A stretch of DNA of 64,000 nt. It comes from Ostreococcus lucimarinus. Its lineage: Eukaryota. The number at the start of each line of letters is the position of its first letter. The stretch's first letter is position 1. The stretch lies in the NCBI GenBank assembly GCA_000092065.1, contig CP000581.1. One strand, written 5' to 3'. Position numbers and translations under genes: made by a program. Shown piece by piece: positions 1,011-63,166 of the stretch. Below the pieces are notes generated by a model. The model was not told the DNA's origin. It did not search any database and worked only from the letters and a program-made list of their open reading frames with translations.

Positions 1011-1529
1011 TTACACATCGCCCAACGCTCGAGCGTCCGCCGCGAATAATTCTGGGTACTTCTCCCGCATCCCTCGCGCGCTCGTCGCCGCACCATCCGC
1101 TAGCAAAAACGCGGGTGGTGCGTTCCAATCCTCCCCACTCGGTTTCCACGCATCTTCCGCGTCGTCCTTCGTCTCCGCCGAAGCCTCGACGTCCTCTCGC
1201 AGCTCCGACACCAACCGCCTCAGGATCGCATCCGCCGCCCGCACGCGCGATGACGACGTCTCCACGCCGTCCCCATCGTCCGGCGCCGCGGACGCGAGCG
1301 GTCTCGAATGTTCGTCCGCGTCGCGCGTCGCCAGCGCGGCGCCACTCGACACATCGTATCCCAACATGCGCAGTTCCATGCGTCGTCGAACCATCGCGCG
1401 AAGCGCCGCGTCGTCGTCGCGCGCGTCGTCGCTCGCGTCGCTCGCGACGGTCAGAGCGGTGGCACGCGACGACGTCGAGGGATGACCGTCGAGGTAGGCC
1501 TCGAGACGCGCGCTGGCCTCGAGACGCAT
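1011..1529 (-). CDS. Hypothetical acidic (Asp/Ala-rich) protein
   Basis: 172-aa ORF with strongly GC-biased third codon positions in this frame. Same frame and strand as the upstream gene, 48 nt after its stop, so uncertain. Confidence 0.3.
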   Translation of the reverse strand: MRLEASARLEAYLDGHPSTSSRATALTVASDASDDARDDDAALRAMVRRRMELRMLGYDVSSGAALATRDADEHSRPLASAAPDDGDGVETSSSRVRAADAILRRLVSELREDVEASAETKDDAEDAWKPSGEDWNAPPAFLLADGAATSARGMREKYPELFAADARALGDV

Positions 1530-1577: not shown

Positions 1578-2666
1578 CTACTCGCACTTTTCGCAATTCG
1601 AGGACGGCACGGCGATGACGAGGTCGCACTCGCCGACGTTTATCCAAACGTTTTCCATTTTGGTTTTGCTGTTCACGGTGACGTCTGCGTCGAGGTGGCT
1701 CTCGGTCGTCGGCGCATCGGCGTCCGGCGCGGAAACGTCGAATAAGTCCGTCGTCCAATCGATGAGCGTTCGAGCCGTCTTCGCGAGCTCGCGGCTCTCG
1801 CGATCGAGTCTCTTGAGATACCACGGCGGCGTTTCCGCGTGTGCGGTTTTCTCCGCGTGCGGTGGACTCGGAATCGGGCACTCCGGAGACGCCGGCGAAC
1901 TCGGCGTAACGCGGACGACGGGCGCGTCTCGCGAGAAGTCGAACCCGGTCCGACTTCGAGCGCCCGCCCAAAACGTGTTCGCTTTTGAAGAATCGATGAC
2001 TTTACCGGTCAACTTCAACGCCTTGGGAGGTGGTACGAAACTCACGGTGTTTGACTGAGGCAACGCGCCGTCGAGGGCGAGCGCTCTCGGGACGACCACG
2101 ACGCGATGCTCGTCCGTCCCGTGGTCGTCACCGTCCTCTTCATCAAACACGTAATCATTTTCATCGTACGACGTCGAAGCCTCGCACGGCGACAACGCGC
2201 ACCGCTCGAAATCTAAATTTAGCTCTTCGACGTCGGCGCTCGCGTCGATTACGTCTTCGCTCCCCGCGACCGAAGCGACTGAAGCCTCCGGTTCGCCGAC
2301 GTCTTCCGGCGTCGAAGTCGCCGCGCCGACACCATCACTCGATGACTCCACGACTGCCGTCGCGCGCTCGCGCTCCGCCGCCTCGAAAGCCGCGACTTCT
2401 TCCAAACGTTCCATGTGCTCGAACCACACGTCTGGCGGCGGGAACTGCTCGCGCAGCTCCAGCTTCACCCTCCGCACCACAGCCTTCGTCTTCGCCCGAA
2501 CCGCGATCTTCGCTCGCGACGCCTTCCCCGCGAGCCACGCCTTGGCCGCGCCCAGTCCCAGGCGCGCGCGCGCCCCGTTCGCCGTCGACGCGCCCTCTGC
2601 CGACTGTGACGATTCGCGTACTCGCGCGACATTTTCCGCCTCCACGCCGCCGTCGCGCGCCGTCAT
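1578..2666 (-). CDS. Hypothetical protein (acidic central region, Cys-containing C-terminus)
   Basis: 362-aa ORF, diverse composition, high GC3. AT-rich stop-codon-dense 3' flank (tag taa ... taa). Confidence 0.55.
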   Translation of the reverse strand: MTARDGGVEAENVARVRESSQSAEGASTANGARARLGLGAAKAWLAGKASRAKIAVRAKTKAVVRRVKLELREQFPPPDVWFEHMERLEEVAAFEAAERERATAVVESSSDGVGAATSTPEDVGEPEASVASVAGSEDVIDASADVEELNLDFERCALSPCEASTSYDENDYVFDEEDGDDHGTDEHRVVVVPRALALDGALPQSNTVSFVPPPKALKLTGKVIDSSKANTFWAGARSRTGFDFSRDAPVVRVTPSSPASPECPIPSPPHAEKTAHAETPPWYLKRLDRESRELAKTARTLIDWTTDLFDVSAPDADAPTTESHLDADVTVNSKTKMENVWINVGECDLVIAVPSSNCEKCE

Positions 2667-20146: not shown

Positions 20147-20193
20147 TTGGGCGCGCGCTTTCGTGTTGTTACATAGTCGATGTAGTTGTAGAA

Positions 20194-36262: not shown

Positions 36263-36464
36263 CGCGCGTCGTCTTCGTGTTGTAACTCTAGCGCCCGGAT
36301 CTTTCAGTCTTCGCGTCAACCGTCAGTCGTCGGTTGTTAGTTGGTCGTTAGTTCCGTCGCGTCGCGCGCCGCCGCGCGCCCGTAACATCGAGGCGCCGAA
36401 AGAATTCGAGCGCGCGAAAACAATCGTCGCGAACGTTCGTGCGTCGAGATCGCGGCTGGATACA

Positions 36465-39806: not shown

Positions 39807-39858
39807 TATCGCTAAACAAATTCGTCTGTTGTTACATTATTCTTAGTCGCACAAGTTC

Positions 39859-54947: not shown

Positions 54948-56042
54948 TTACATCACCTTGAGGTGCTCGTACTTGGTGGCGTCGAGGCCGAGGTTAGCCA
55001 TCAGCGCGTTCCAACGGGGCGGTTCCTCGTCGAAGACGTAGGTGAGCGGGAACGTCAAAACGCCGCTGCCGCCCATTCCTCGCAACTTCTTGACGGTTTC
55101 ATAAATACGAGACTTTGGCACGGCCACGGAGACCGCGTAGTACTCGCCCGCCTTTCCAGAACCGTCCGGTTGCGGCGTGTACACCGGCGCAATCGTGGGA
55201 CCTTGTAAACCGCGCAACGTCGCCGCGCTGTTGAGCTTAGCCGCCACGGCTTCCGGAGAATCGCCGCGGACGTTCGCCGTCACCATGAACAAACTCTCGG
55301 CGCGCAAGTGAGCCTCAAGACGCTCGAGAAGTTCGTGAACGATCTCTAACAAACCTTCGCGTTTCAGCAAAGCCTCCCTGGACGCGACCAAAACCCCTTG
55401 ACTGTCGAGCACGCGCCCGCCCTCGATCTCCTTCAAGTTGTTCTCTCGAAGCGTCGTCCCGCTGCTAACCAAATCGAGAATGCAGTCGGCGGCGCCCATC
55501 GCCGGCGCCGCCTCCAACGCACCGTCCGCGGTGGTAATTTCCACGTGTTCGAACCCGATATCCTCGAAGAATTGCTTCGCCACGCTCGGGTACGCGGTGA
55601 CCACGCGCAACGGACGCGCCGGTCCCCACTTCGGGAGCGCCATCAACTCTCGCATGCTGTTAATCTCGTCCCACGCCTGCGGGATCGCCACGGCGAGGTG
55701 GCATCCACCGAACCCGAGCGCATCGTGCACGATGACAATGTCATCGTCACCGTACGCGATCTCGGCGAGCATATCGTACCCGACGATGCCGACGTCGATG
55801 TCGCCCGAAACAATCTTGCGCACCACGTCCGTGGCGCGTTGAAACCAAACCTCCATTCCCGGCACGCTCGGGATCTCCGCCGCGTACTGTCGCGGGTTCA
55901 ACTTTTTCACCGGTAACTGACACGTCTTCAACAACGCCTGCGTGTCTTCAGCCATGCGACCCTTGGAAGGAATGCCCATCCGGATCGACGACCGCGACTC
56001 CACGGGTTTGCGAAACGCTGCGCGCGAACCCACGCGCTCCAT
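54948..56042 (-). CDS. HISG: ATP phosphoribosyltransferase, long (plant/bacterial HisG-L) form
   Basis: Collinear with HisG: MGIPSKGRM, DIDVGIVGYDML, RVVTAYPSVAKQFF, LDLVSSGTTLRENNL, and the C-terminal regulatory domain. Confidence 0.92.
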   Translation of the reverse strand: MERVGSRAAFRKPVESRSSIRMGIPSKGRMAEDTQALLKTCQLPVKKLNPRQYAAEIPSVPGMEVWFQRATDVVRKIVSGDIDVGIVGYDMLAEIAYGDDDIVIVHDALGFGGCHLAVAIPQAWDEINSMRELMALPKWGPARPLRVVTAYPSVAKQFFEDIGFEHVEITTADGALEAAPAMGAADCILDLVSSGTTLRENNLKEIEGGRVLDSQGVLVASREALLKREGLLEIVHELLERLEAHLRAESLFMVTANVRGDSPEAVAAKLNSAATLRGLQGPTIAPVYTPQPDGSGKAGEYYAVSVAVPKSRIYETVKKLRGMGGSGVLTFPLTYVFDEEPPRWNALMANLGLDATKYEHLKVM

Positions 56043-56449
56043 CGGCGCACTTTTCGTCAGTCTCCGCGCTCGCGCGTCGTCACCGCCCCACCCTCACCCC
56101 GCGTCCGCCCTTCCCATCGCCGGAATCCGCGCGAACCACCCCATCGACCTCCCGCGCGCCGTCGCCGATCCGTCCTATCCACTCCCGCGTCGTCTCGAAT
56201 CGATCCCTCCCCCCCCCGCGCCTCCTTCTCGCCTCGTCCTCGCGATCGCGCGTCGCCTCGCCATCGATTCGCCTCGCCTCGACGCACCCTTCCCGTTCGC
56301 CTTCTCCGTGCTCTTGATGCTCGCCGTCGTCGCGCGTCGTCGCGCCGTCGCCGCCGTCCATCGCGTCCCGCATCGCATCGCGCGTCGCGTCGTCGTCGTC
56401 GCGCATCCGTACGACGTCCTCGCGCCGAGCGTCGCCGTCGCCGTCGCCA

Positions 56450-58354: not shown

Positions 58355-59362
58355 ATGACGCGCGCGGGCGACGACGACGTCGACGCGCGCGACTCGGCGC
58401 GCGAAGAGACGACGAGCGCCGGCCGCGCGCCGAGTCGCGTGCTCGTCGTCGGCGGTGGACGCGTCGGCGCGTACCTCGCGCGCGCGTTTCGACGAGGCGA
58501 GGTCGAGCGCGTGGCGCTGAAGACGTCGAACAGGGCGGCGCGGGCGGGGGACGAGACGCGGGAAGCGGCGCGCGTCATAGCGAGCGACGCGGGCGCGATC
58601 GTCATGTCCACCTACGATGGACTGACGACGGAGGAGGAGAGACATTTTGATTTTATTTTCATCGCGGTGAAGACGTACGCGCTTGAGGCGGTGAAGCGAG
58701 AGCTCTCGGAAGCCGGGATTACGTTTGATAACGTCGTGTTGGCGCACAACGGCATCGTGGCGCCGATGTTCGATGAGAATAAATCGACGCGGGCGGTGAT
58801 GCCGCAGTCGTGGGACATCGTCGAGACCCCTGGAGTTGGGTGCGGGTACGACATACACGTGAAGAATGAAGACAAGCCGTGGGTGATGCCGAACACGGCG
58901 GGAGGACGCGCCACGCGCGCGTTGTTGCAAAAGTGCGGCGTACTGAGCGACGCCACCGATGAGTTCGAGTACTTACTCCTTCGTAAATATTTCATCAATG
59001 GCGTCGCGAACTTACTCGCGATCGTGGGCGATTGCAACTGCGATGGCTTGCTGCAGCATCATCGCGAGACGATGGAGACGCTGTACGACGAAATGTTGGA
59101 AATTTTACGAGTCCCGCACGCCGACGGCTTCGCCCTCGCCCCAGAGAATTTCCGCGACGTCGTCTTCGCGGGTTTAGCGACGTACCGAGACCACTTTCCA
59201 TCGACCAAGCTCGATTTCGACGCGGGCGCGAAGCTCGAGATCGATAGTCTCAACGGATACGTCGTCCAGCGCGCCAAGGAGCAGGGCCTTCCGTGCGCCG
59301 CGCACGAACGTCTCATCGAGCAAGTCAACGCCCTCGTCGCCGCGCGCGACGGTAAATCGTAA
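58355..59362 (+). CDS. 2-dehydropantoate 2-reductase (ketopantoate reductase, ApbA/PanE) family protein
   Basis: Rossmann VLVVGGGRVGAYLARAF. FIFIAVKTYALEAV. C-terminal domain ..DSLNGYVVQRAKEQGLPCAAHERLIEQVNALV. First ATG at 58355 (the track start 58175 is upstream in-frame non-ATG). Confidence 0.8.
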   Translation: MTRAGDDDVDARDSAREETTSAGRAPSRVLVVGGGRVGAYLARAFRRGEVERVALKTSNRAARAGDETREAARVIASDAGAIVMSTYDGLTTEEERHFDFIFIAVKTYALEAVKRELSEAGITFDNVVLAHNGIVAPMFDENKSTRAVMPQSWDIVETPGVGCGYDIHVKNEDKPWVMPNTAGGRATRALLQKCGVLSDATDEFEYLLLRKYFINGVANLLAIVGDCNCDGLLQHHRETMETLYDEMLEILRVPHADGFALAPENFRDVVFAGLATYRDHFPSTKLDFDAGAKLEIDSLNGYVVQRAKEQGLPCAAHERLIEQVNALVAARDGKS

Positions 59363-59513
59363 TCGTCATATTCATGTAGCTAAGTCCACCGTTTGTTCAC
59401 GCGCGCGCGCGCGCATCGCGACTTCACCGCTCGATTCTAGCGTCGCTCGGCGCGACAGCCGCGCTTCAAACGCGGCGCGACCGCACTTCGAGCCTCGCGA
59501 CGACCGCCGGCGC

Positions 59514-59681
59514 ATGCCGAACCCGTCGCAGCCTCCATCCGTTTTCCGCATCGCCGCTTTCACGCTCATCGGCGCCGCGATCGGGTTCTACGCGCAGAAC
59601 GAGATCGAACGCGACTACAAAGACAAACAGTTGGCTGCGTACGAAGAATATCTCGAGCGTCGCGCGAAAGCGAAGAAATAA
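59514..59681 (+). CDS. Small (55-aa) single-TM protein ORF not present in the supplied ORF track
   Basis: atg..taa in frame: MPNPSQPPSVFRIAAFTLIGAAIGFYAQNEIERDYKDKQLAAYEEYLERRAKAKK. High GC3. It ends 57 nt before the PP2C start codon. Confidence 0.4.
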   Translation: MPNPSQPPSVFRIAAFTLIGAAIGFYAQNEIERDYKDKQLAAYEEYLERRAKAKK

Positions 59682-59738
59682 TCGCGCCGTCGTTCGCGCG
59701 CGCCGCGTCGACGCGTCCCGACGTCGAAGCGCGTCGAC

Positions 59739-60941
59739 ATGGACGCGAGTCGCCGCCGGAGCGGGTCGTTGGAGTTCGGCGTGGTGGAGAACTGCGCGCC
59801 GAATGAAGCGTTTAATTTGAATGGCTTTGGGTTCGCGTTCGACGCGTGCGCGATACGAGGCGAACGGCCGTACATGGAGGATCGATGGTGCGCGGTGTTG
59901 GATGAGGAGATAGGAGCGTTTGTGCTTGCGGTGTACGATGGACACGGCGGCGCGGCGGTGAGTTCGCACTTGAGCGCGCACCTGGCGCGGGAGGTGCTGG
60001 GGGAGGCGACGCTGCGGAGTGATCCAGAGACGGCGCTGAAACGGGCGTTTAAGCGTGTGAATGACGTCGTGTGCGATCGGAATCCAGGTGATATGCGAGG
60101 GATGTATGGGAGACCAGGGGCGGGTTCGACGGCGATCATGGCGCTGATTATTCCGCCTAAAATGTACGTAGCGAACGTGGGCGATTCGCGCGCCACGGCG
60201 TTGGACAATCGAGGGCAGGTGACGTTTGAGTCGAAGGATCAGCGCCCGTGCGTGGCTGAGGAGAAGGAAAGAATAGTTAGAGATGGTGGGTTCGTCAAGC
60301 GCGGTAGAGATGGGACGTTGCGAACGTGTGGTATATTAGCGGTGTCGCGCGCTTTCGGCAACGCGGGCATCAAGCAGTTTTTATCCGTCGAACCGGAGGT
60401 GTACGCTGTAGATTTGGAGACCGTTGATTCGTTGATTTTATGCTCAGACGGGTTGACTGATGTCATGGGGAGTAAGTTGGCGAGTGAAACGATGCGCGCG
60501 GCGCCAGTCGGCGTAGTGGCCTCTTCGCCCTCGCCCGTACGGACGAGACGCGTCGCCAACTCGCTCGTCACTCTCGCGCGCGTTCGGCAAAGTAGAGACA
60601 ATATCAGCGCTGTCGTGCTCCAGGCGCGAAAGTTATCGTCCATTACGTTTCCTTCTCTAGATACTCCGGTCTCTGATGTGCAAGCCACGTTTGGAACGCC
60701 AGAGACGGTGCAGTATAATCCGGCGCCCGCCGACGTGAAGGACGGCCAAGACGCTGCGTCACGAGCGGCGCTAGATTTCGACGCGAACAAAGAGGGCGTG
60801 ACTGTAGACGAGAAGGTGAGCGCGCAAGAGCACGATGACGATGCGCAGGCTTCTGATGACGATGGACTCTCGTCGCCTGTTCCGAGTGTCATGAGAGAAT
60901 CGACACAAGCAATCACGCCAATCATTCACGCGAGCGGTTGA
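59739..60941 (+). CDS. Protein phosphatase 2C (PPM family)
   Basis: FGFAFDACAIRGERPYMEDRW, VYDGHGG, GSTAIMAL, GDSRA, LAVSRAFGN, ILCSDGLTDV. Confidence 0.9.
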   Translation: MDASRRRSGSLEFGVVENCAPNEAFNLNGFGFAFDACAIRGERPYMEDRWCAVLDEEIGAFVLAVYDGHGGAAVSSHLSAHLAREVLGEATLRSDPETALKRAFKRVNDVVCDRNPGDMRGMYGRPGAGSTAIMALIIPPKMYVANVGDSRATALDNRGQVTFESKDQRPCVAEEKERIVRDGGFVKRGRDGTLRTCGILAVSRAFGNAGIKQFLSVEPEVYAVDLETVDSLILCSDGLTDVMGSKLASETMRAAPVGVVASSPSPVRTRRVANSLVTLARVRQSRDNISAVVLQARKLSSITFPSLDTPVSDVQATFGTPETVQYNPAPADVKDGQDAASRAALDFDANKEGVTVDEKVSAQEHDDDAQASDDDGLSSPVPSVMRESTQAITPIIHASG

Positions 60942-61015
60942 AATTGCAAGTTGATAGCAGCGCGCGCGTCTAGTGGGGATTACAAAGTGTATGTTTAATA
61001 CGAAGGACAACAGTA

Positions 61016-63166
61016 TTACGGCGTTGTCGTCGTTGCTTGGGGTTTATTTCGCATCTTCGTAGCGAGTTTCGCCGCTTTCTCGTCCGTCAACACTCCGATG
61101 GCGGACCAGTACGAAAAACCCGCCAAGACGTAAAACGCGGGAGCCAGGAGCAAGGCGTGTTGCAAGTCGTACTTCGAGGCCAGGGATGCCACTAAAAGCG
61201 GTCCAATTCCTGCGACCATGTTTCTCACTGCGAGGTGCGCTGCCGCGGCGACGCTCGGCGTCTCTGGTAGGGCATCTCGCGTCATCACCGCCGTCGGCGC
61301 TCGGAATATTTCCGAAGCTACGATGCCCGGGAACAAGTACATGAGGGACGTTTTATAGTCATCGGCGAGAAGAGACGCAGCGAGTAACGGACCAGCTGCG
61401 ATCGTCATGATGGATATAAACCACCTCTGCCCATTCGGTCCGCGGGATTGGAGTCTATCACAAATCCAACCCCCGCCGAGACCACCGGTGACGCCCGCGA
61501 TTGGGATGACCATCGCCAGGAGCGGGTCGTACTCTTGCGGCGTGAGCGAAAATACGCGCTCGTAAAACGCCGCTTGAAAGGCAATCATGGACCATCCGGC
61601 GACGTCAGATAATGTCGCCGCCGTCGTGACTTGTCTAAACGCTTCGCTATCGAAACATCTGGTCAAGGAGTCGAACATGTCGTTCTTCTCCGTCGGCTTG
61701 ATGGGGACGGAGGTGTACTGGCCAGCCATGTTGCTTTGCGCCGCGGCCGCTCGCGCGGCGGTTCTCACTCGCTGCTCCTCCGTCGTGAGATCGTCTTCGT
61801 CGATCGTCGAGCCCACGAGAGCGACCAACCCACCGTTGTCGATCGCGGGCAGAGATTTGTACATCTTCTCTTTGAGTTTGCGTCGCTCCCGCTGCGCCTT
61901 TCGCTCTTGCGCGCGCTTGCGCCGCTTCACCGCGCGCGATCCCGTGGACGTGCGCCCGGGATCACCTATCGTGAACAAAATCAGCGGTACTATGATCAAA
62001 CCCGGAAGCGCGACGATGTCGTAAATTTGATGCCACGACATCCCCGAAGACAGCATGGCGTCGCCGACTGTGTTCTCCAAGACGGTGCCGACGTTTGGCG
62101 TCAGCACGACGGCGTCCGCGGTGGTGTACAAAATCGTGTGCGCGCCCAAGGCGCCGATCTCCGTCAAGTACGTCAACGGAAGCGTGATTGGCTCGTTGGA
62201 GAATATGGGATCCTCCGCTCCCGGAGGCAGCGGCGTGCGCCCGACGAAAGCACCGCTCGCGAAACTCACCGCGCGCCCGGCGTGAATGGCCAAATTATAC
62301 ACGCTCAGCGCGAGCGCCTTGTTCCTCGGGAACATCTCCGGAATCATGCTAAACGCCACCGGGTTCTGCGCCCCGTTTCCGACCGCGAACAATCCACGAG
62401 AAATCAACAACGCGGTAAAATTCTCCGAGTGCGCCGTCATGAACGACGCCGCCGTCCACGTCGCCGCCCCCAACGCGAGCAAATTTTTTCGATCCACCGT
62501 ATCCGCCAACACCCCCACGAACGGCAACAGCAACGAATACGTCACCGTGAACAGCGTCGTCAGCACCGCGCCTTGCCCATCGTCCAGCTTCAAATCCGCG
62601 CTCATCGCCGGGAGCAAACTCGGCAACAGAAACCCCGTCGCCGACGCGTGACAGTACGCGCACGTCAGCAACCCCAGCGCCCACGCCGCGCGTCGCTCCC
62701 CTTCCGTTCGAAACCTCCCGCCTCGCCCGCCCGCGTCCGCGTCCGCGCCGCGCCGATCATCGCGTTCGCCCTCGTCGTCCTCGCTCGCGTCGTCGAACGC
62801 GTCCGGGAACGCGTCGAGCGTCGCGCCGTCGACCGACCGCGTCCCGTCCGCGTCAGCATCGTCGACGTCGTCGCGCCGCGCCGTCCCCGTTTCGCGCGCG
62901 CGCACCGCCTCGGCGCGCGTCGCCGCGCGCGCGCGACGTCGCGCGGCGTCCGCGCCGTCGCGCGTCGCGCCGCGCGTCGCCGCGTCGCGCGACGCGCGCG
63001 TCGTCGTCGACGCCGCGGATACGATTCGACGTCGCGGACGTTCGCGCGTCGTCGCGACGCGCGCGATCGCGATCGATCGCGACGGCGCGGACGTCGACGC
63101 CGCGCGCGTCGACGCCGCGCGCATCGAGCGAGCCCGCGTCGCGCGCGCGTCGCGCAGTCCCGGCAC
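61016..63166 (-). CDS. Major facilitator superfamily transporter with long low-complexity N-terminal extension and large central loop
   Basis: 12-TM-like arrangement. MFS signature-like ..GVLADTVDRKNLLALGAATWTAASF.. The N-terminal ~170 aa is Arg/Ala/Thr/Asp-rich. Confidence 0.8.
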   Translation of the reverse strand: MPGLRDARATRARSMRAASTRAASTSAPSRSIAIARVATTRERPRRRIVSAASTTTRASRDAATRGATRDGADAARRRARAATRAEAVRARETGTARRDDVDDADADGTRSVDGATLDAFPDAFDDASEDDEGERDDRRGADADAGGRGGRFRTEGERRAAWALGLLTCAYCHASATGFLLPSLLPAMSADLKLDDGQGAVLTTLFTVTYSLLLPFVGVLADTVDRKNLLALGAATWTAASFMTAHSENFTALLISRGLFAVGNGAQNPVAFSMIPEMFPRNKALALSVYNLAIHAGRAVSFASGAFVGRTPLPPGAEDPIFSNEPITLPLTYLTEIGALGAHTILYTTADAVVLTPNVGTVLENTVGDAMLSSGMSWHQIYDIVALPGLIIVPLILFTIGDPGRTSTGSRAVKRRKRAQERKAQRERRKLKEKMYKSLPAIDNGGLVALVGSTIDEDDLTTEEQRVRTAARAAAAQSNMAGQYTSVPIKPTEKNDMFDSLTRCFDSEAFRQVTTAATLSDVAGWSMIAFQAAFYERVFSLTPQEYDPLLAMVIPIAGVTGGLGGGWICDRLQSRGPNGQRWFISIMTIAAGPLLAASLLADDYKTSLMYLFPGIVASEIFRAPTAVMTRDALPETPSVAAAAHLAVRNMVAGIGPLLVASLASKYDLQHALLLAPAFYVLAGFSYWSAIGVLTDEKAAKLATKMRNKPQATTTTP

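Follow-up and report, generated by a model that had tools for sequence, protein, structure and literature searches.

A short ORF upstream of a PP2C phosphatase gene as a candidate bicistronic nuclear locus conserved in Mamiellophyceae

We find that a 55-codon ORF (ORF1) and the gene for a PP2C-family phosphatase immediately downstream of it (ORF2) probably make up a bicistronic nuclear locus that is conserved in Mamiellophyceae and would be expressed from one mRNA, on which the second ORF would be reached by leaky scanning. The pair was studied in a 64,000-nt stretch of the Ostreococcus lucimarinus genome (GenBank assembly GCA_000092065.1, contig CP000581.1), hereafter the window, and in related lineages. 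A preliminary description of this DNA had proposed that the two ORFs share a dicistronic transcript. The proposal is supported by comparative tests, that is, the presence of the pair in 13 lineages, the ATG-free interval before the PP2C start, codon choice within ORF1 and the asymmetry between the two start contexts, and not by the spacing of the ORFs. From these sequence comparisons we infer a single transcript, translation of both ORFs, and leaky scanning over reinitiation.

ORF1 occupies 59514..59681 of the plus strand (168 nt, 55 aa), from the ATG at 59514 to a TAA stop at 59679-59681, and holds no internal ATG in any frame; its translation is identical to the sequence first reported for it. 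An open frame of 55 codons is uninformative on its own, since this DNA is GC-rich and 39 ORFs of 40 aa or longer overlap the surrounding 6 kb. The strong GC3 bias attributed to ORF1 was reproduced (0.75, against a mean of 0.78 for the 42 gene models of the window). Its codon-usage score is 6.7, compared with 10.7 +/- 5.5 for real 55-codon windows and -7.0 +/- 7.1 for frames that are open but wrong; a score this high is attained by just 1.6% of such windows. The dN/dS ratio of ORF1 is 0.13 in the comparison with the closest relative; most pairs give 0.2-0.5 and values reach 0.92, all to be read with dS mostly above 0.9 or saturated. The preliminary description had suggested looking for the small protein in related genomes, and an ORF of 52-64 aa is indeed kept in 13 Mamiellophyceae lineages. 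Judged by codon usage, substitution rates and conservation, ORF1 codes for a protein and evolves under purifying selection. The label 'unannotated' formerly given to it is doubtful, as a protein identical to ORF1 is present in a public collection, with NCBI among the sources, under the name 'hypothetical protein'.

The ORF1 product is predicted to be a single-helix protein that is probably inserted in a membrane. Hydropathy, invariant alignment columns and an AlphaFold2 model place a hydrophobic Gly/Ala-rich helix, SVFRIAAFTLIGAAIGFYA, at codons 9-27 (59538..59594, plus strand), and the alignment columns place within it an invariant GxxxG motif (G20-G24; 59571..59585, plus strand). The single transmembrane helix of the preliminary description thus survives in part: the hydrophobic segment is real but borderline, with a best 19-residue Kyte-Doolittle mean of 1.62 (residues 9-27) and a best 15-residue mean of 1.94. 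AlphaFold2 returns one continuous helix over residues 10-54 (pLDDT 88). Invariant positions in the family alignment are F16, L18, G20, G24, F25, Q28 and E32, and conservation is centred on the hydrophobic GxxxG helix and the Q..E..Y segment that follows; the C-terminal 5-10 residues beside the stop are variable, Lys-rich and of unequal length among lineages. Tryptic peptides derived from the sequence include IAAFTLIGAAIGFYAQNEIER and QLAAYEEYLER. A HMMER scan run exhaustively on 1.84 billion representatives, together with a profile search, recovered an ORF1 family of 23 clusters in which every protein is 48-102 aa long, and matches of the scan were confined to this family. A word-indexed protein search with ORF1 alone returned its own 90% cluster and nothing further, and the ORF1 profile had no significant match in Pfam or the PDB. 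On the basis of these searches the family appears restricted to Mamiellophyceae.

The downstream cistron (59739..60941, plus strand; 1203 nt, 400 aa) encodes a PP2C-family Ser/Thr phosphatase, matched by Pfam PF00481 over residues 34-289 (E=1.5e-35; 123.5 bits against a 20.3-bit cut-off). As initially described, its ATG lies at 59739 on the same strand, 57 nt past the ORF1 stop, and the frames of the two ORFs are equal. Orthologues show 37-83% identity, and an N-terminal motif (RRxSxS..FGVVENCAPNE) starts a few residues past the ATG in all Ostreococcus-type lineages. For one Bathycoccus-like lineage, ORF2 shares 92% identity with an NCBI Bathycoccus prasinos protein; the B. prasinos protein begins with residues identical to those of the ORF whose ATG lies 6 nt past the ORF1 stop in lineage member L055.

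ORF1 lies directly upstream of the orthologous PP2C gene in 13/13 lineages (Ostreococcus-, Bathycoccus- and Mamiellaceae-like), at distances of 6, 16, 17, 20, 21, 34, 54, 56, 57, 57, 64, 69 and 70 nt. In GC-rich Mamiellaceae-like loci the pair is kept although the neighbouring genes differ. Across the lineages compared, both the pairing and the short spacing are conserved. The two ORFs might encode one polypeptide, a membrane-anchored PP2C made by readthrough, frameshifting or splicing: four lineages, that of the window among them (57 nt after TAA), have a spacer whose length is divisible by 3 and in which no second stop lies in frame. In animals, PPM1L (protein phosphatase 1L) combines a PP2C with a membrane anchor at the N-terminus, and the PP2C of the window is labelled 'protein phosphatase 1L' by one source. 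We give a joint polypeptide a practically negligible probability, as the frame offset between ORF1 and PP2C is not constant among lineages, taking values of 0, 1 and 2 (the gaps include 56, 64, 70, 20, 16, 17 and 34 nt), and every lineage keeps its own ORF1 stop codon and its own PP2C ATG; in L014 the ORF1 stop, TAG, is immediately followed by TAA. Furthermore, an N-terminal hydrophobic segment was seen in 0/17 divergent PP2C homologues whose N-termini were inspected, and no similarity was found between ORF1 and any of these N-termini. Readthrough or fusion was rejected on the unconserved frame relation, and gene fission from a transmembrane-anchored PP2C on the inspected homologues. Compared with the PPM1L-type animal enzymes, a PP2C domain and a single membrane helix occur in both cases, but at the present locus the helix is encoded apart from the phosphatase and ends at a stop codon of its own in every lineage.

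The initial argument for a shared mRNA had been that 57 nt is too short for a terminator plus a promoter. Taken alone this argument is weak: the window contains two other tandem pairs whose coding sequences are 37 and 48 nt apart, and tight spacing need not mean a shared mRNA because these pairs exist without ATG depletion, their upstream ORFs holding 6 and 8 internal ATGs. Together with the convergent gaps of 30-52 nt in the window, and with transcription units that routinely overlap or abut, such packing speaks for two separate monocistronic genes, with a PP2C promoter or transcription start inside ORF1 or the spacer and a short mRNA for ORF1 itself. We consider this arrangement unlikely. 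An mRNA for ORF1 alone would need a poly(A) site, which the spacers of 6-21 nt in five lineages would put inside the PP2C coding region, and the spacer of the window lacks the AT-rich or TGTA-containing patch typical of sequence past stop codons. This spacer (59682..59738, plus strand; 57 nt) is 77% GC, the second highest among 43 stop-codon flanks, and contains no ATG, TGTA or AT-rich patch. An AT-rich 15-mer (GC <= 0.40) occurs within 57 nt past the stop in 37 of the 42 genes, compared with a minimum 15-mer GC of 0.67 in the ORF1 spacer, and TGTA and TGTAA, both enriched past stop codons in the window, are both absent from it. The ORF1-PP2C spacer of the window is without 3'-end-type sequence.

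The flanks of the pair differ from this spacer. Upstream, the PanE/ApbA-like ORF ends at 59362 with an AT-rich patch containing TGTAG immediately past its stop, and the intergenic region that follows (59363..59513, plus strand) presumably comprises the PanE 3' end, a promoter and a short 5' leader; the sole ATG within 150 nt 5' of ORF1 is at -140. The PanE-to-ORF1 gap is about 143-216 nt at the four loci read (Ostreococcus-type and Bathycoccus-like), versus 6-70 nt between ORF1 and PP2C in all lineages. Downstream, 60942..61015 (plus strand) is the putative 3' end region of the message, where an AT-rich patch occurs and a TGTA lies at 60988, 47 nt past the PP2C stop; it is common to the 3' sides of PP2C and of a convergent MFS-transporter gene (61016..63124, minus strand, an ATG-based gene model). 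The Logan contigs over the locus (L020-L025) were inspected and contain no poly(A) tail or transcript ends; they are genomic-like and run into neighbouring genes. An imperfect inverted repeat in the spacer ends at the PP2C ATG. The fold of the spacer is no better than that of shuffled sequence (z = -0.74) and an Rfam search of the spacer gave no match; with spacers that cannot be aligned between lineages and are as short as 6 nt, an IRES or structured RNA in the spacer was rejected.

Between the ORF1 start and the PP2C start, no ATG occurs in any frame at 81/81 loci (79 loci with 21 distinct ORF1 proteins, plus two Mamiellaceae-like loci). For the window alone such an ATG desert was dropped as a significant feature, as an ATG is equally lacking from 12% of sense-strand CDS windows of 222 nt and from about 19% of windows placed at random. 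Per lineage, the chance of an ATG-free interval is 0.04-0.19 (random windows from the same locus). With the proteins held fixed, the joint probability of an ATG-free ORF1 is 10^-2.7 when its own codons are shuffled and 10^-9.3 under PP2C codon usage, and the spacers contribute a further 10^-2.5; these joint probabilities are overstated because the 13 lineages share ancestry. The depletion extends to codon choice. Among NAY codons that precede a G-initial codon, where a T ending risks creating an ATG, 0/36 in ORF1 end in T, compared with 17/59 of the other ORF1 NAY codons (Fisher p=1.6e-4) and 133/368 of the equivalent risk sites in PP2C ORFs (p=3e-7). According to these counts, synonymous codon choice in ORF1 avoids creating ATGs. 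Every ATG-risk codon pair in ORF1 lies at codon 26 or later, so a PP2C-only transcript starting in the first third of ORF1 would explain the codon result equally well: in the case of two separate genes, a PP2C 5' UTR covering the 3' two-thirds of ORF1, with selection on upstream AUGs, would account for the bias.

What two separate genes leave unexplained is the start of ORF1, where a pyrimidine stands at -3 in 11/13 lineages, against a purine at about 64% of the gene starts in the window. In the window the ORF1 start context is cggcgcATGc (59508..59517, plus strand), with C at -3 and C at +4, and is only weakly Kozak-like; that of PP2C is gtcgacATGg, with G at both positions. Scored with a Kozak matrix built on the 42 first-ATG gene models of the window, the ORF1 start obtains 0.12 (low but not extreme, at the 24th percentile among the 42 gene starts) and the PP2C start 1.81 (50th percentile). 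A purine is found at -3 in 2/13 ORF1 starts versus 11/13 PP2C starts (p=0.0012). By this comparison, the start context of ORF1 is consistently weaker than that of PP2C.

The shared message that we favour would work as follows. One capped mRNA would start in the region of about 150 nt past the PanE-like gene and end beyond the PP2C stop. The first AUG reached by scanning ribosomes would be that of ORF1, whose context is weak, with a pyrimidine at -3, and part of them would initiate there to make the 55-aa, single-helix and probably membrane-inserted protein. The remaining ribosomes would scan past ORF1 and the spacer, both kept AUG-free in all frames, and would initiate at the PP2C AUG in its better context with a purine at -3.

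A shared transcript could also deliver PP2C by reinitiation, after ORF1 has been translated and terminated; short ATG-free spacers, as seen here, are needed in this case too, and published work leaves room for some contribution of reinitiation (PMC11892635). At the present locus it strikes us as improbable. Reinitiation needs neither a weak ORF1 start nor, because translating ribosomes ignore such ATGs, the avoidance of out-of-frame ATGs inside ORF1, and both are seen. In eukaryotes, moreover, reinitiation works poorly once an ORF of 52-64 codons, the length of ORF1, has been translated, and when the spacer is as short as 6 nt, like the shortest one here.

ORF1 might instead be a regulatory uORF whose conserved peptide tunes PP2C translation in cis and has no independent protein function. 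It resembles the plant CPuORFs in being conserved at the peptide level, in its size of a few dozen codons and in its position in the leader of a regulatory gene, here PP2C. Stalling peptides of CPuORFs are usually conserved most strongly near the C-terminus; in ORF1, by contrast, the conserved part is the hydrophobic GxxxG helix with the Q..E..Y segment, the C-terminal tail varies in sequence and length, and such a helix is more typical of a membrane protein. In addition, ATG avoidance and a weak ORF1 start suggest ribosomes that bypass ORF1 rather than stall there. A purely regulatory role is rated as highly improbable, and leaky scanning over a protein-coding ORF1 is retained as the preferred reading.

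As for function, our working guess is that ORF1 encodes a small membrane protein, made in a dosage tied to that of the phosphatase and possibly acting as its partner; a physical association of the two products is pure speculation. ORF1 also bears some resemblance to ATP synthase subunit e (PF05680), which is likewise small, with an N-terminal hydrophobic helix, a GxxxG motif followed by an aromatic residue, and then a long charged helix. The best matches, all sub-threshold, come from one ORF1-family member (Pfam E=0.011; PDB chain 9b0x_T, E=0.024), and the best member scores 16.3 bits, under the 22-bit cut-off. The ORF1 protein of the window itself has no match to PF05680, no subunit e was found when the family profile was searched against the PDB, and hhalign between the ORF1 family and subunit e gives a probability of only 21%. 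When the sequences are read by eye, the spacing from a conserved Arg to the GxxxG differs by one residue between the two families. An N-terminal GxxxG helix followed by a charged helix is present in ORF1 (G20 and G24 invariant; AlphaFold2), an architecture that is not specific to subunit e. No assignment is made on this resemblance, which is kept only as a lead.

More specifically, ORF1 could be a dedicated membrane partner of PP2C, as an anchor or regulator, or the missing, highly divergent subunit e of Mamiellophyceae, two suggestions to which together we attach rather little probability. As a membrane partner, ORF1 would have its ratio to PP2C and its place of synthesis fixed by the bicistron; as subunit e, it would mean that a signalling phosphatase and a subunit of a respiratory complex are linked in their translation. 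In either case there would be a functional rationale for keeping the bicistron across Ostreococcus-, Bathycoccus- and Mamiellaceae-like lineages. Whatever its function, with ORF1 the Mamiellophyceae gene set gains a family of small, uncharacterised proteins, and annotation and expression analysis of this PP2C must consider the upstream cistron. The pair may also offer a compact natural two-gene expression cassette for the genetically tractable Ostreococcus.

The existence of polycistronic nuclear mRNAs is established for chlorophycean and trebouxiophycean algae, and bicistronic nuclear loci with leaky scanning are described in Chlamydomonas reinhardtii, Chromochloris zofingiensis and Auxenochlorella protothecoides (PMC7896298, PMC11892635). 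These published loci bear out the earlier remark that pairs of a small and a large ORF on one message are known in green algae. For the picoplanktonic Mamiellophyceae, reports so far are limited to colinearity among orthologues of Chlamydomonas loci and include neither Iso-Seq nor EST evidence (PMC7896298, PMC11892635). We found no entry for PP2C in the searchable supplementary lists of published green-algal bicistrons, and our literature search gave no mention of the ORF1-PP2C locus or of any PP2C bicistron. ORF1-PP2C is thus a lineage-specific candidate in which the marks of leaky scanning would be left in sequence evolution itself, as an AUG-free ORF1, a codon bias and a conserved weak start, and with a spacer that reaches an extreme of 6 nt in Bathycoccus. 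The comparison indicates that green algae gain another example of a two-gene message, though not an unprecedented one, and that leaky-scanning bicistrons may be recognisable from genomes and metagenomes alone.

[quoted passage not shown] The present locus is similar in that an ORF1 of 168 nt is much shorter than its ORF2 of 1203 nt, the spacer is 57 nt (6-70 nt in the 13 lineages), the ORF1 context is the weaker one, AUGs are depleted before ORF2 and the pair is colinear across species, all of this known here from genomic DNA. It differs from the published loci in its ORF1 family, which is apparently found in Mamiellophyceae only. A deeply conserved counterpart from land plants and green algae is the CDC26-TTM3 bicistronic locus (cited in PMC11892635). 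Its proteins are unrelated to those studied here: TTM3 is a triphosphate-tunnel enzyme instead of a PP2C, and in place of a hydrophobic helix there is CDC26, a soluble subunit of the APC/C. Going by the description in that paper, the two loci nevertheless share the order of a small protein ORF followed by a phosphatase ORF on what is, or in our case would be, one mRNA.

ORF1, a small open reading frame that encodes MPNPSQPPSVFRIAAFTLIGAAIGFYAQNEIERDYKDKQLAAYEEYLERRAKAKK, begins with ATG 59514 and closes with TAA 59681 on the + strand. A 57-nt spacer on the same strand separates its stop from the ATG at 59739 of the PP2C ORF (59739..60941, + strand), which encodes 400 amino acids and matches the Pfam PP2C domain with E=1.5e-35. 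ORF coordinates, encoded sequence, gap and domain agree with the preliminary description of this locus; its labelling of ORF1 as 'unannotated' is doubtful. The locus is flanked upstream by a PanE/ApbA-like reductase gene ending at 59362 (+ strand) and downstream by an MFS-transporter gene ending at 61016 (- strand), which converges on the PP2C gene. Genes are densely packed in the window (about 62% GC), with 42 gene models in 64 kb; these were called with a codon-usage model whose training set was the genes with Pfam support. The genes present, such as those for SAS-6, an ERGIC/COPII-coated-vesicle protein and SET, are eukaryotic. GC content by 2-kb windows is markedly uneven, from 0.54 (10-12 kb, 26-28 kb and 32-34 kb) up to 0.72 (6-8 kb). 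The PanE-ORF1 intergenic region contains a (GC)7 alternating run at 59404..59417, and the short elements GACTTCACCGCTCGATTC and CGCACTTCGAG upstream of ORF1 are common to the window and the related locus L001, with CGCACTTCG also present ahead of ORF1 in L015; these conserved elements may be promoter or TSS elements.

The preliminary description took the 57-nt spacing to mean that the two ORFs probably share a transcript. This argument is insufficient by itself, because similar tandem gaps of 37 and 48 nt also occur in the window and carry upstream ORFs with internal ATGs (6 and 8, respectively). Tandem CDS-to-CDS gaps measure 37, 48, 57, 97, 99, 101, 108 nt and up, and the smallest convergent and divergent gaps are 30 and 31 nt. 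In the 48-nt pair (1578..2666 then 1011..1529, - strand), both ORFs (362 and 172 aa) look ordinary and the spacer is AT-rich; the pair shows that genes in the window can abut at this distance without bicistron signatures. In the 37-nt pair, HisG (54948..56042) is preceded by a 108-aa ORF of low complexity with many Asp, Arg and Gly residues (56080..56406, - strand). Several gene finders predict this ORF in related contigs and its codon score is positive; it may be a questionable gene, or the product of wrong modelling of the 5' region or transit peptide of HisG. Stops of convergent genes are 30-52 nt apart, so their 3' UTRs must run into one another or into the adjacent gene; the pair 13111/13175 shares an A10/T10 tract.

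A 55-codon open frame is no evidence for a gene in this DNA, since 39 ORFs of 40 aa or longer overlap the 6 kb around ORF1. The codon-usage score of ORF1 is 6.7, compared with 10.7 +/- 5.5 for real 55-codon windows and -7.0 +/- 7.1 for open wrong-frame windows, only 1.6% of which reach it, and its GC3 is 0.75 (gene mean 0.78). Orthologous PP2C genes were taken from a protein collection and their contigs fetched, an exhaustive HMMER scan together with a profile search identified ORF1 homologues, and a metagenome scan with the ORF1-family alignment gave 56 additional loci. An intact ORF1 of 52-64 aa is found in 79 loci (21 distinct ORF1 proteins) and in two GC-rich Mamiellaceae-like loci (L082 and L083), all with the core R..F.L[IVL]G[AG]..GF[YHE].Q...E. 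The closest pair has a dN/dS of 0.13, and most other pairs fall at 0.2-0.5, with a maximum of 0.92 (dS mostly >0.9 or saturated). Codon usage, conservation and selection together show that ORF1 is a real protein-coding gene under purifying selection. Related proteins include some named Bathycoccus prasinos and Mamiellaceae sp. RCC2288, which, with the eukaryotic gene content, assign the window to an Ostreococcus-type alga of the Mamiellophyceae. This alga is abundant, as contigs encoding the identical ORF1 protein occur in 1571 blocks of the metagenome collections.

In every locus, an orthologous PP2C lies directly downstream of ORF1 on the same strand. Among 13 lineages defined at the 85% amino-acid level, the stop-to-ATG gaps are 57, 64, 57, 54, 56, 16, 34, 20, 70, 17, 6, 21 and 69 nt. 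The 6-nt gap belongs to Bathycoccus. NCBI Bathycoccus prasinos proteins share 92% identity with the ORF2 of this lineage, and their N-terminus (MILNGILFGLP…) is also that of the ORF opening at the ATG 6 nt past the ORF1 stop in L055, a member of the lineage. PanE and ORF1 are about 143-216 nt apart in the four loci, Ostreococcus-type and Bathycoccus-like, in which this distance was read; L082 and L083 have different flanking genes, with an extra minus-strand gene between PanE and ORF1 and a glutaredoxin downstream, and retain the ORF1-PP2C pair with a gap of 69-70 nt. Fusion of ORF1 to PP2C by readthrough, frameshift or splicing was rejected: the frame offset varies among lineages, L014 has TAG followed immediately by TAA, and the divergent PP2C homologues inspected have no N-terminal hydrophobic segment, which also counts against fusion. 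Two PP2C motifs are conserved outside the Pfam catalytic domain, the N-terminal RRxSxS…FGVVENCAPNE in the window and orthologues and the extreme C-terminal (R/D)ESTQAITPI in Ostreococcus-type lineages. Bathycoccus-like loci (L018, L019, L043-L076) carry variable-length Thr, Gln, Asn or Asp codon runs directly after the PP2C start, within the first ~25 codons, and in L018 a frameshift within a GAC repeat reflects a polymorphism or else a fault of the assembly.

Downstream of the ORF1 ATG, the next ATG of any frame is the PP2C start in all 81 loci (the 79, of which 74 are clean and 5 involve a codon-repeat frameshift or the end of a contig, plus L082 and L083). For the window taken alone, the ATG-free stretch is unremarkable, as no ATG occurs in 12% of sense-strand CDS windows of 222 nt or in 19% of random windows. 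The chance per lineage is 0.04-0.19, with a product over the 13 lineages of ~10^-13 if independent; this value is inflated because lineages share ancestry, and probabilities were therefore conditioned on the protein sequences. The joint probability of no ATG is then 10^-2.7 with synonymous codons shuffled within each ORF1 and 10^-9.3 with ORF1 codons drawn from the same-locus PP2C ORF, and the unalignable spacers add a further 10^-2.5 by shuffling. An Asn, Asp, His or Tyr codon before a G-initial codon creates an out-of-frame ATG if it ends in T. At such ATG-risk sites in ORF1, T-ending codons number 0/36 across the 13 lineages, versus 17/59 at other ORF1 NAY codons (Fisher p=1.6e-4) and 133/368 at the same site type in PP2C ORFs (p=3e-7). 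Because all risk sites lie at codon 26 or later, the codon result also fits a PP2C-only transcript: if the two ORFs had separate transcripts, a PP2C-only start in the first third of ORF1 would likewise select against ATGs in the remainder.

Separate transcripts leave the conserved weak ORF1 start unexplained. Position -3 reads CCCCCTGCCTTTG at ORF1 starts and GCGAGAAGGTGAG at PP2C starts in the 13 lineages, a purine in 2/13 versus 11/13 (p=0.0012); 27/42 gene starts of the window have a purine there, and ORF1 and PP2C rank at the 24th and 50th percentiles of start context in the window. Moreover, with spacers of 6-21 nt, separate transcripts would require the poly(A) site of ORF1 to lie within PP2C coding sequence, and we consider them unlikely. 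An AT-rich patch occurs within 57 nt past the stop codon in 37/42 window genes, and TGTAA within 100 nt in 9/41 (median offset 29 nt; random windows 3%), which suggests that window genes use a UGUAA-type polyadenylation signal like Chlamydomonas. Both TGTA and TGTAA show strong enrichment over the 100 nt that follow stop codons, for example at 39807..39858, 36263..36320 and 20147..20193. The 57-nt ORF1-PP2C spacer of the window contains no TGTA and is 77% GC (lowest 15-mer GC 0.67), ranking 2/43 among flanks for GC. An imperfect inverted repeat, GTCGACGCGT … GCGCGTCGAC (59699..59738), ends exactly at the PP2C ATG; its predicted fold is no stabler than shuffled sequence (z = -0.74), and it is not conserved in L001. 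An IRES-type element is unlikely: the spacers cannot be aligned and shrink to 6 nt in one lineage, there is no Rfam match, and the spacer of the window folds no better than shuffles.

ATG desert, codon choice, start contexts and 3'-end signals indicate that ribosomes would have to reach the PP2C AUG by scanning from upstream of the ORF1 AUG, which would place both AUGs on one mRNA. Reinitiation at PP2C after ORF1 translation would need neither a weak ORF1 start nor ATG avoidance inside ORF1, and appears very improbable. ORF1 as a cis-acting conserved-peptide uORF is hard to credit, with its conservation in the hydrophobic helix and its C-terminal tail variable in sequence and length; we give this very little weight. 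The dicistronic reading is thus probable from indirect but convergent evolutionary evidence, with spacer composition rather than spacing among its supports.

ORF1 matched no named family among Pfam and PDB sequences. AlphaFold2, given the family alignment, predicted one helix over residues 10-54 at pLDDT 88; residues 9-27 are moderately hydrophobic (Kyte-Doolittle mean 1.6-1.9), and an invariant GxxxG motif comprises G20 and G24. The matches of one family member, P0089, to mitochondrial ATP synthase subunit e stayed below threshold (PF05680, E=0.011, 16.3 bits versus a 22-bit cut-off; PDB chain 9b0x_T, E=0.024). For calibration, an approximate yeast subunit e query reached no better than E ~0.08 against mammalian subunit e. 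The ORF1-family profile found no subunit e in PDB, and hhalign gave the two families a probability of 21%; a subunit e identity is a lead only. One source names the window PP2C 'protein phosphatase 1L', after an animal PP2C that carries a membrane anchor itself, which makes ORF1 as a putative membrane partner of PP2C an attractive guess.

[quoted passage not shown] All sequence-testable features of this class are found at the ORF1-PP2C locus. The pair is not in the published bicistron supplementary lists searched, and published evidence for Mamiellophyceae is colinearity of Chlamydomonas orthologues only (PMC11892635). Added interest lies in ORF1 as an uncharacterised, apparently Mamiellophyceae-restricted small-protein family and in what may be a codon-level footprint of leaky scanning within it. 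In its sequence features the locus resembles the bicistronic loci of Chlamydomonas, Chromochloris and Auxenochlorella.
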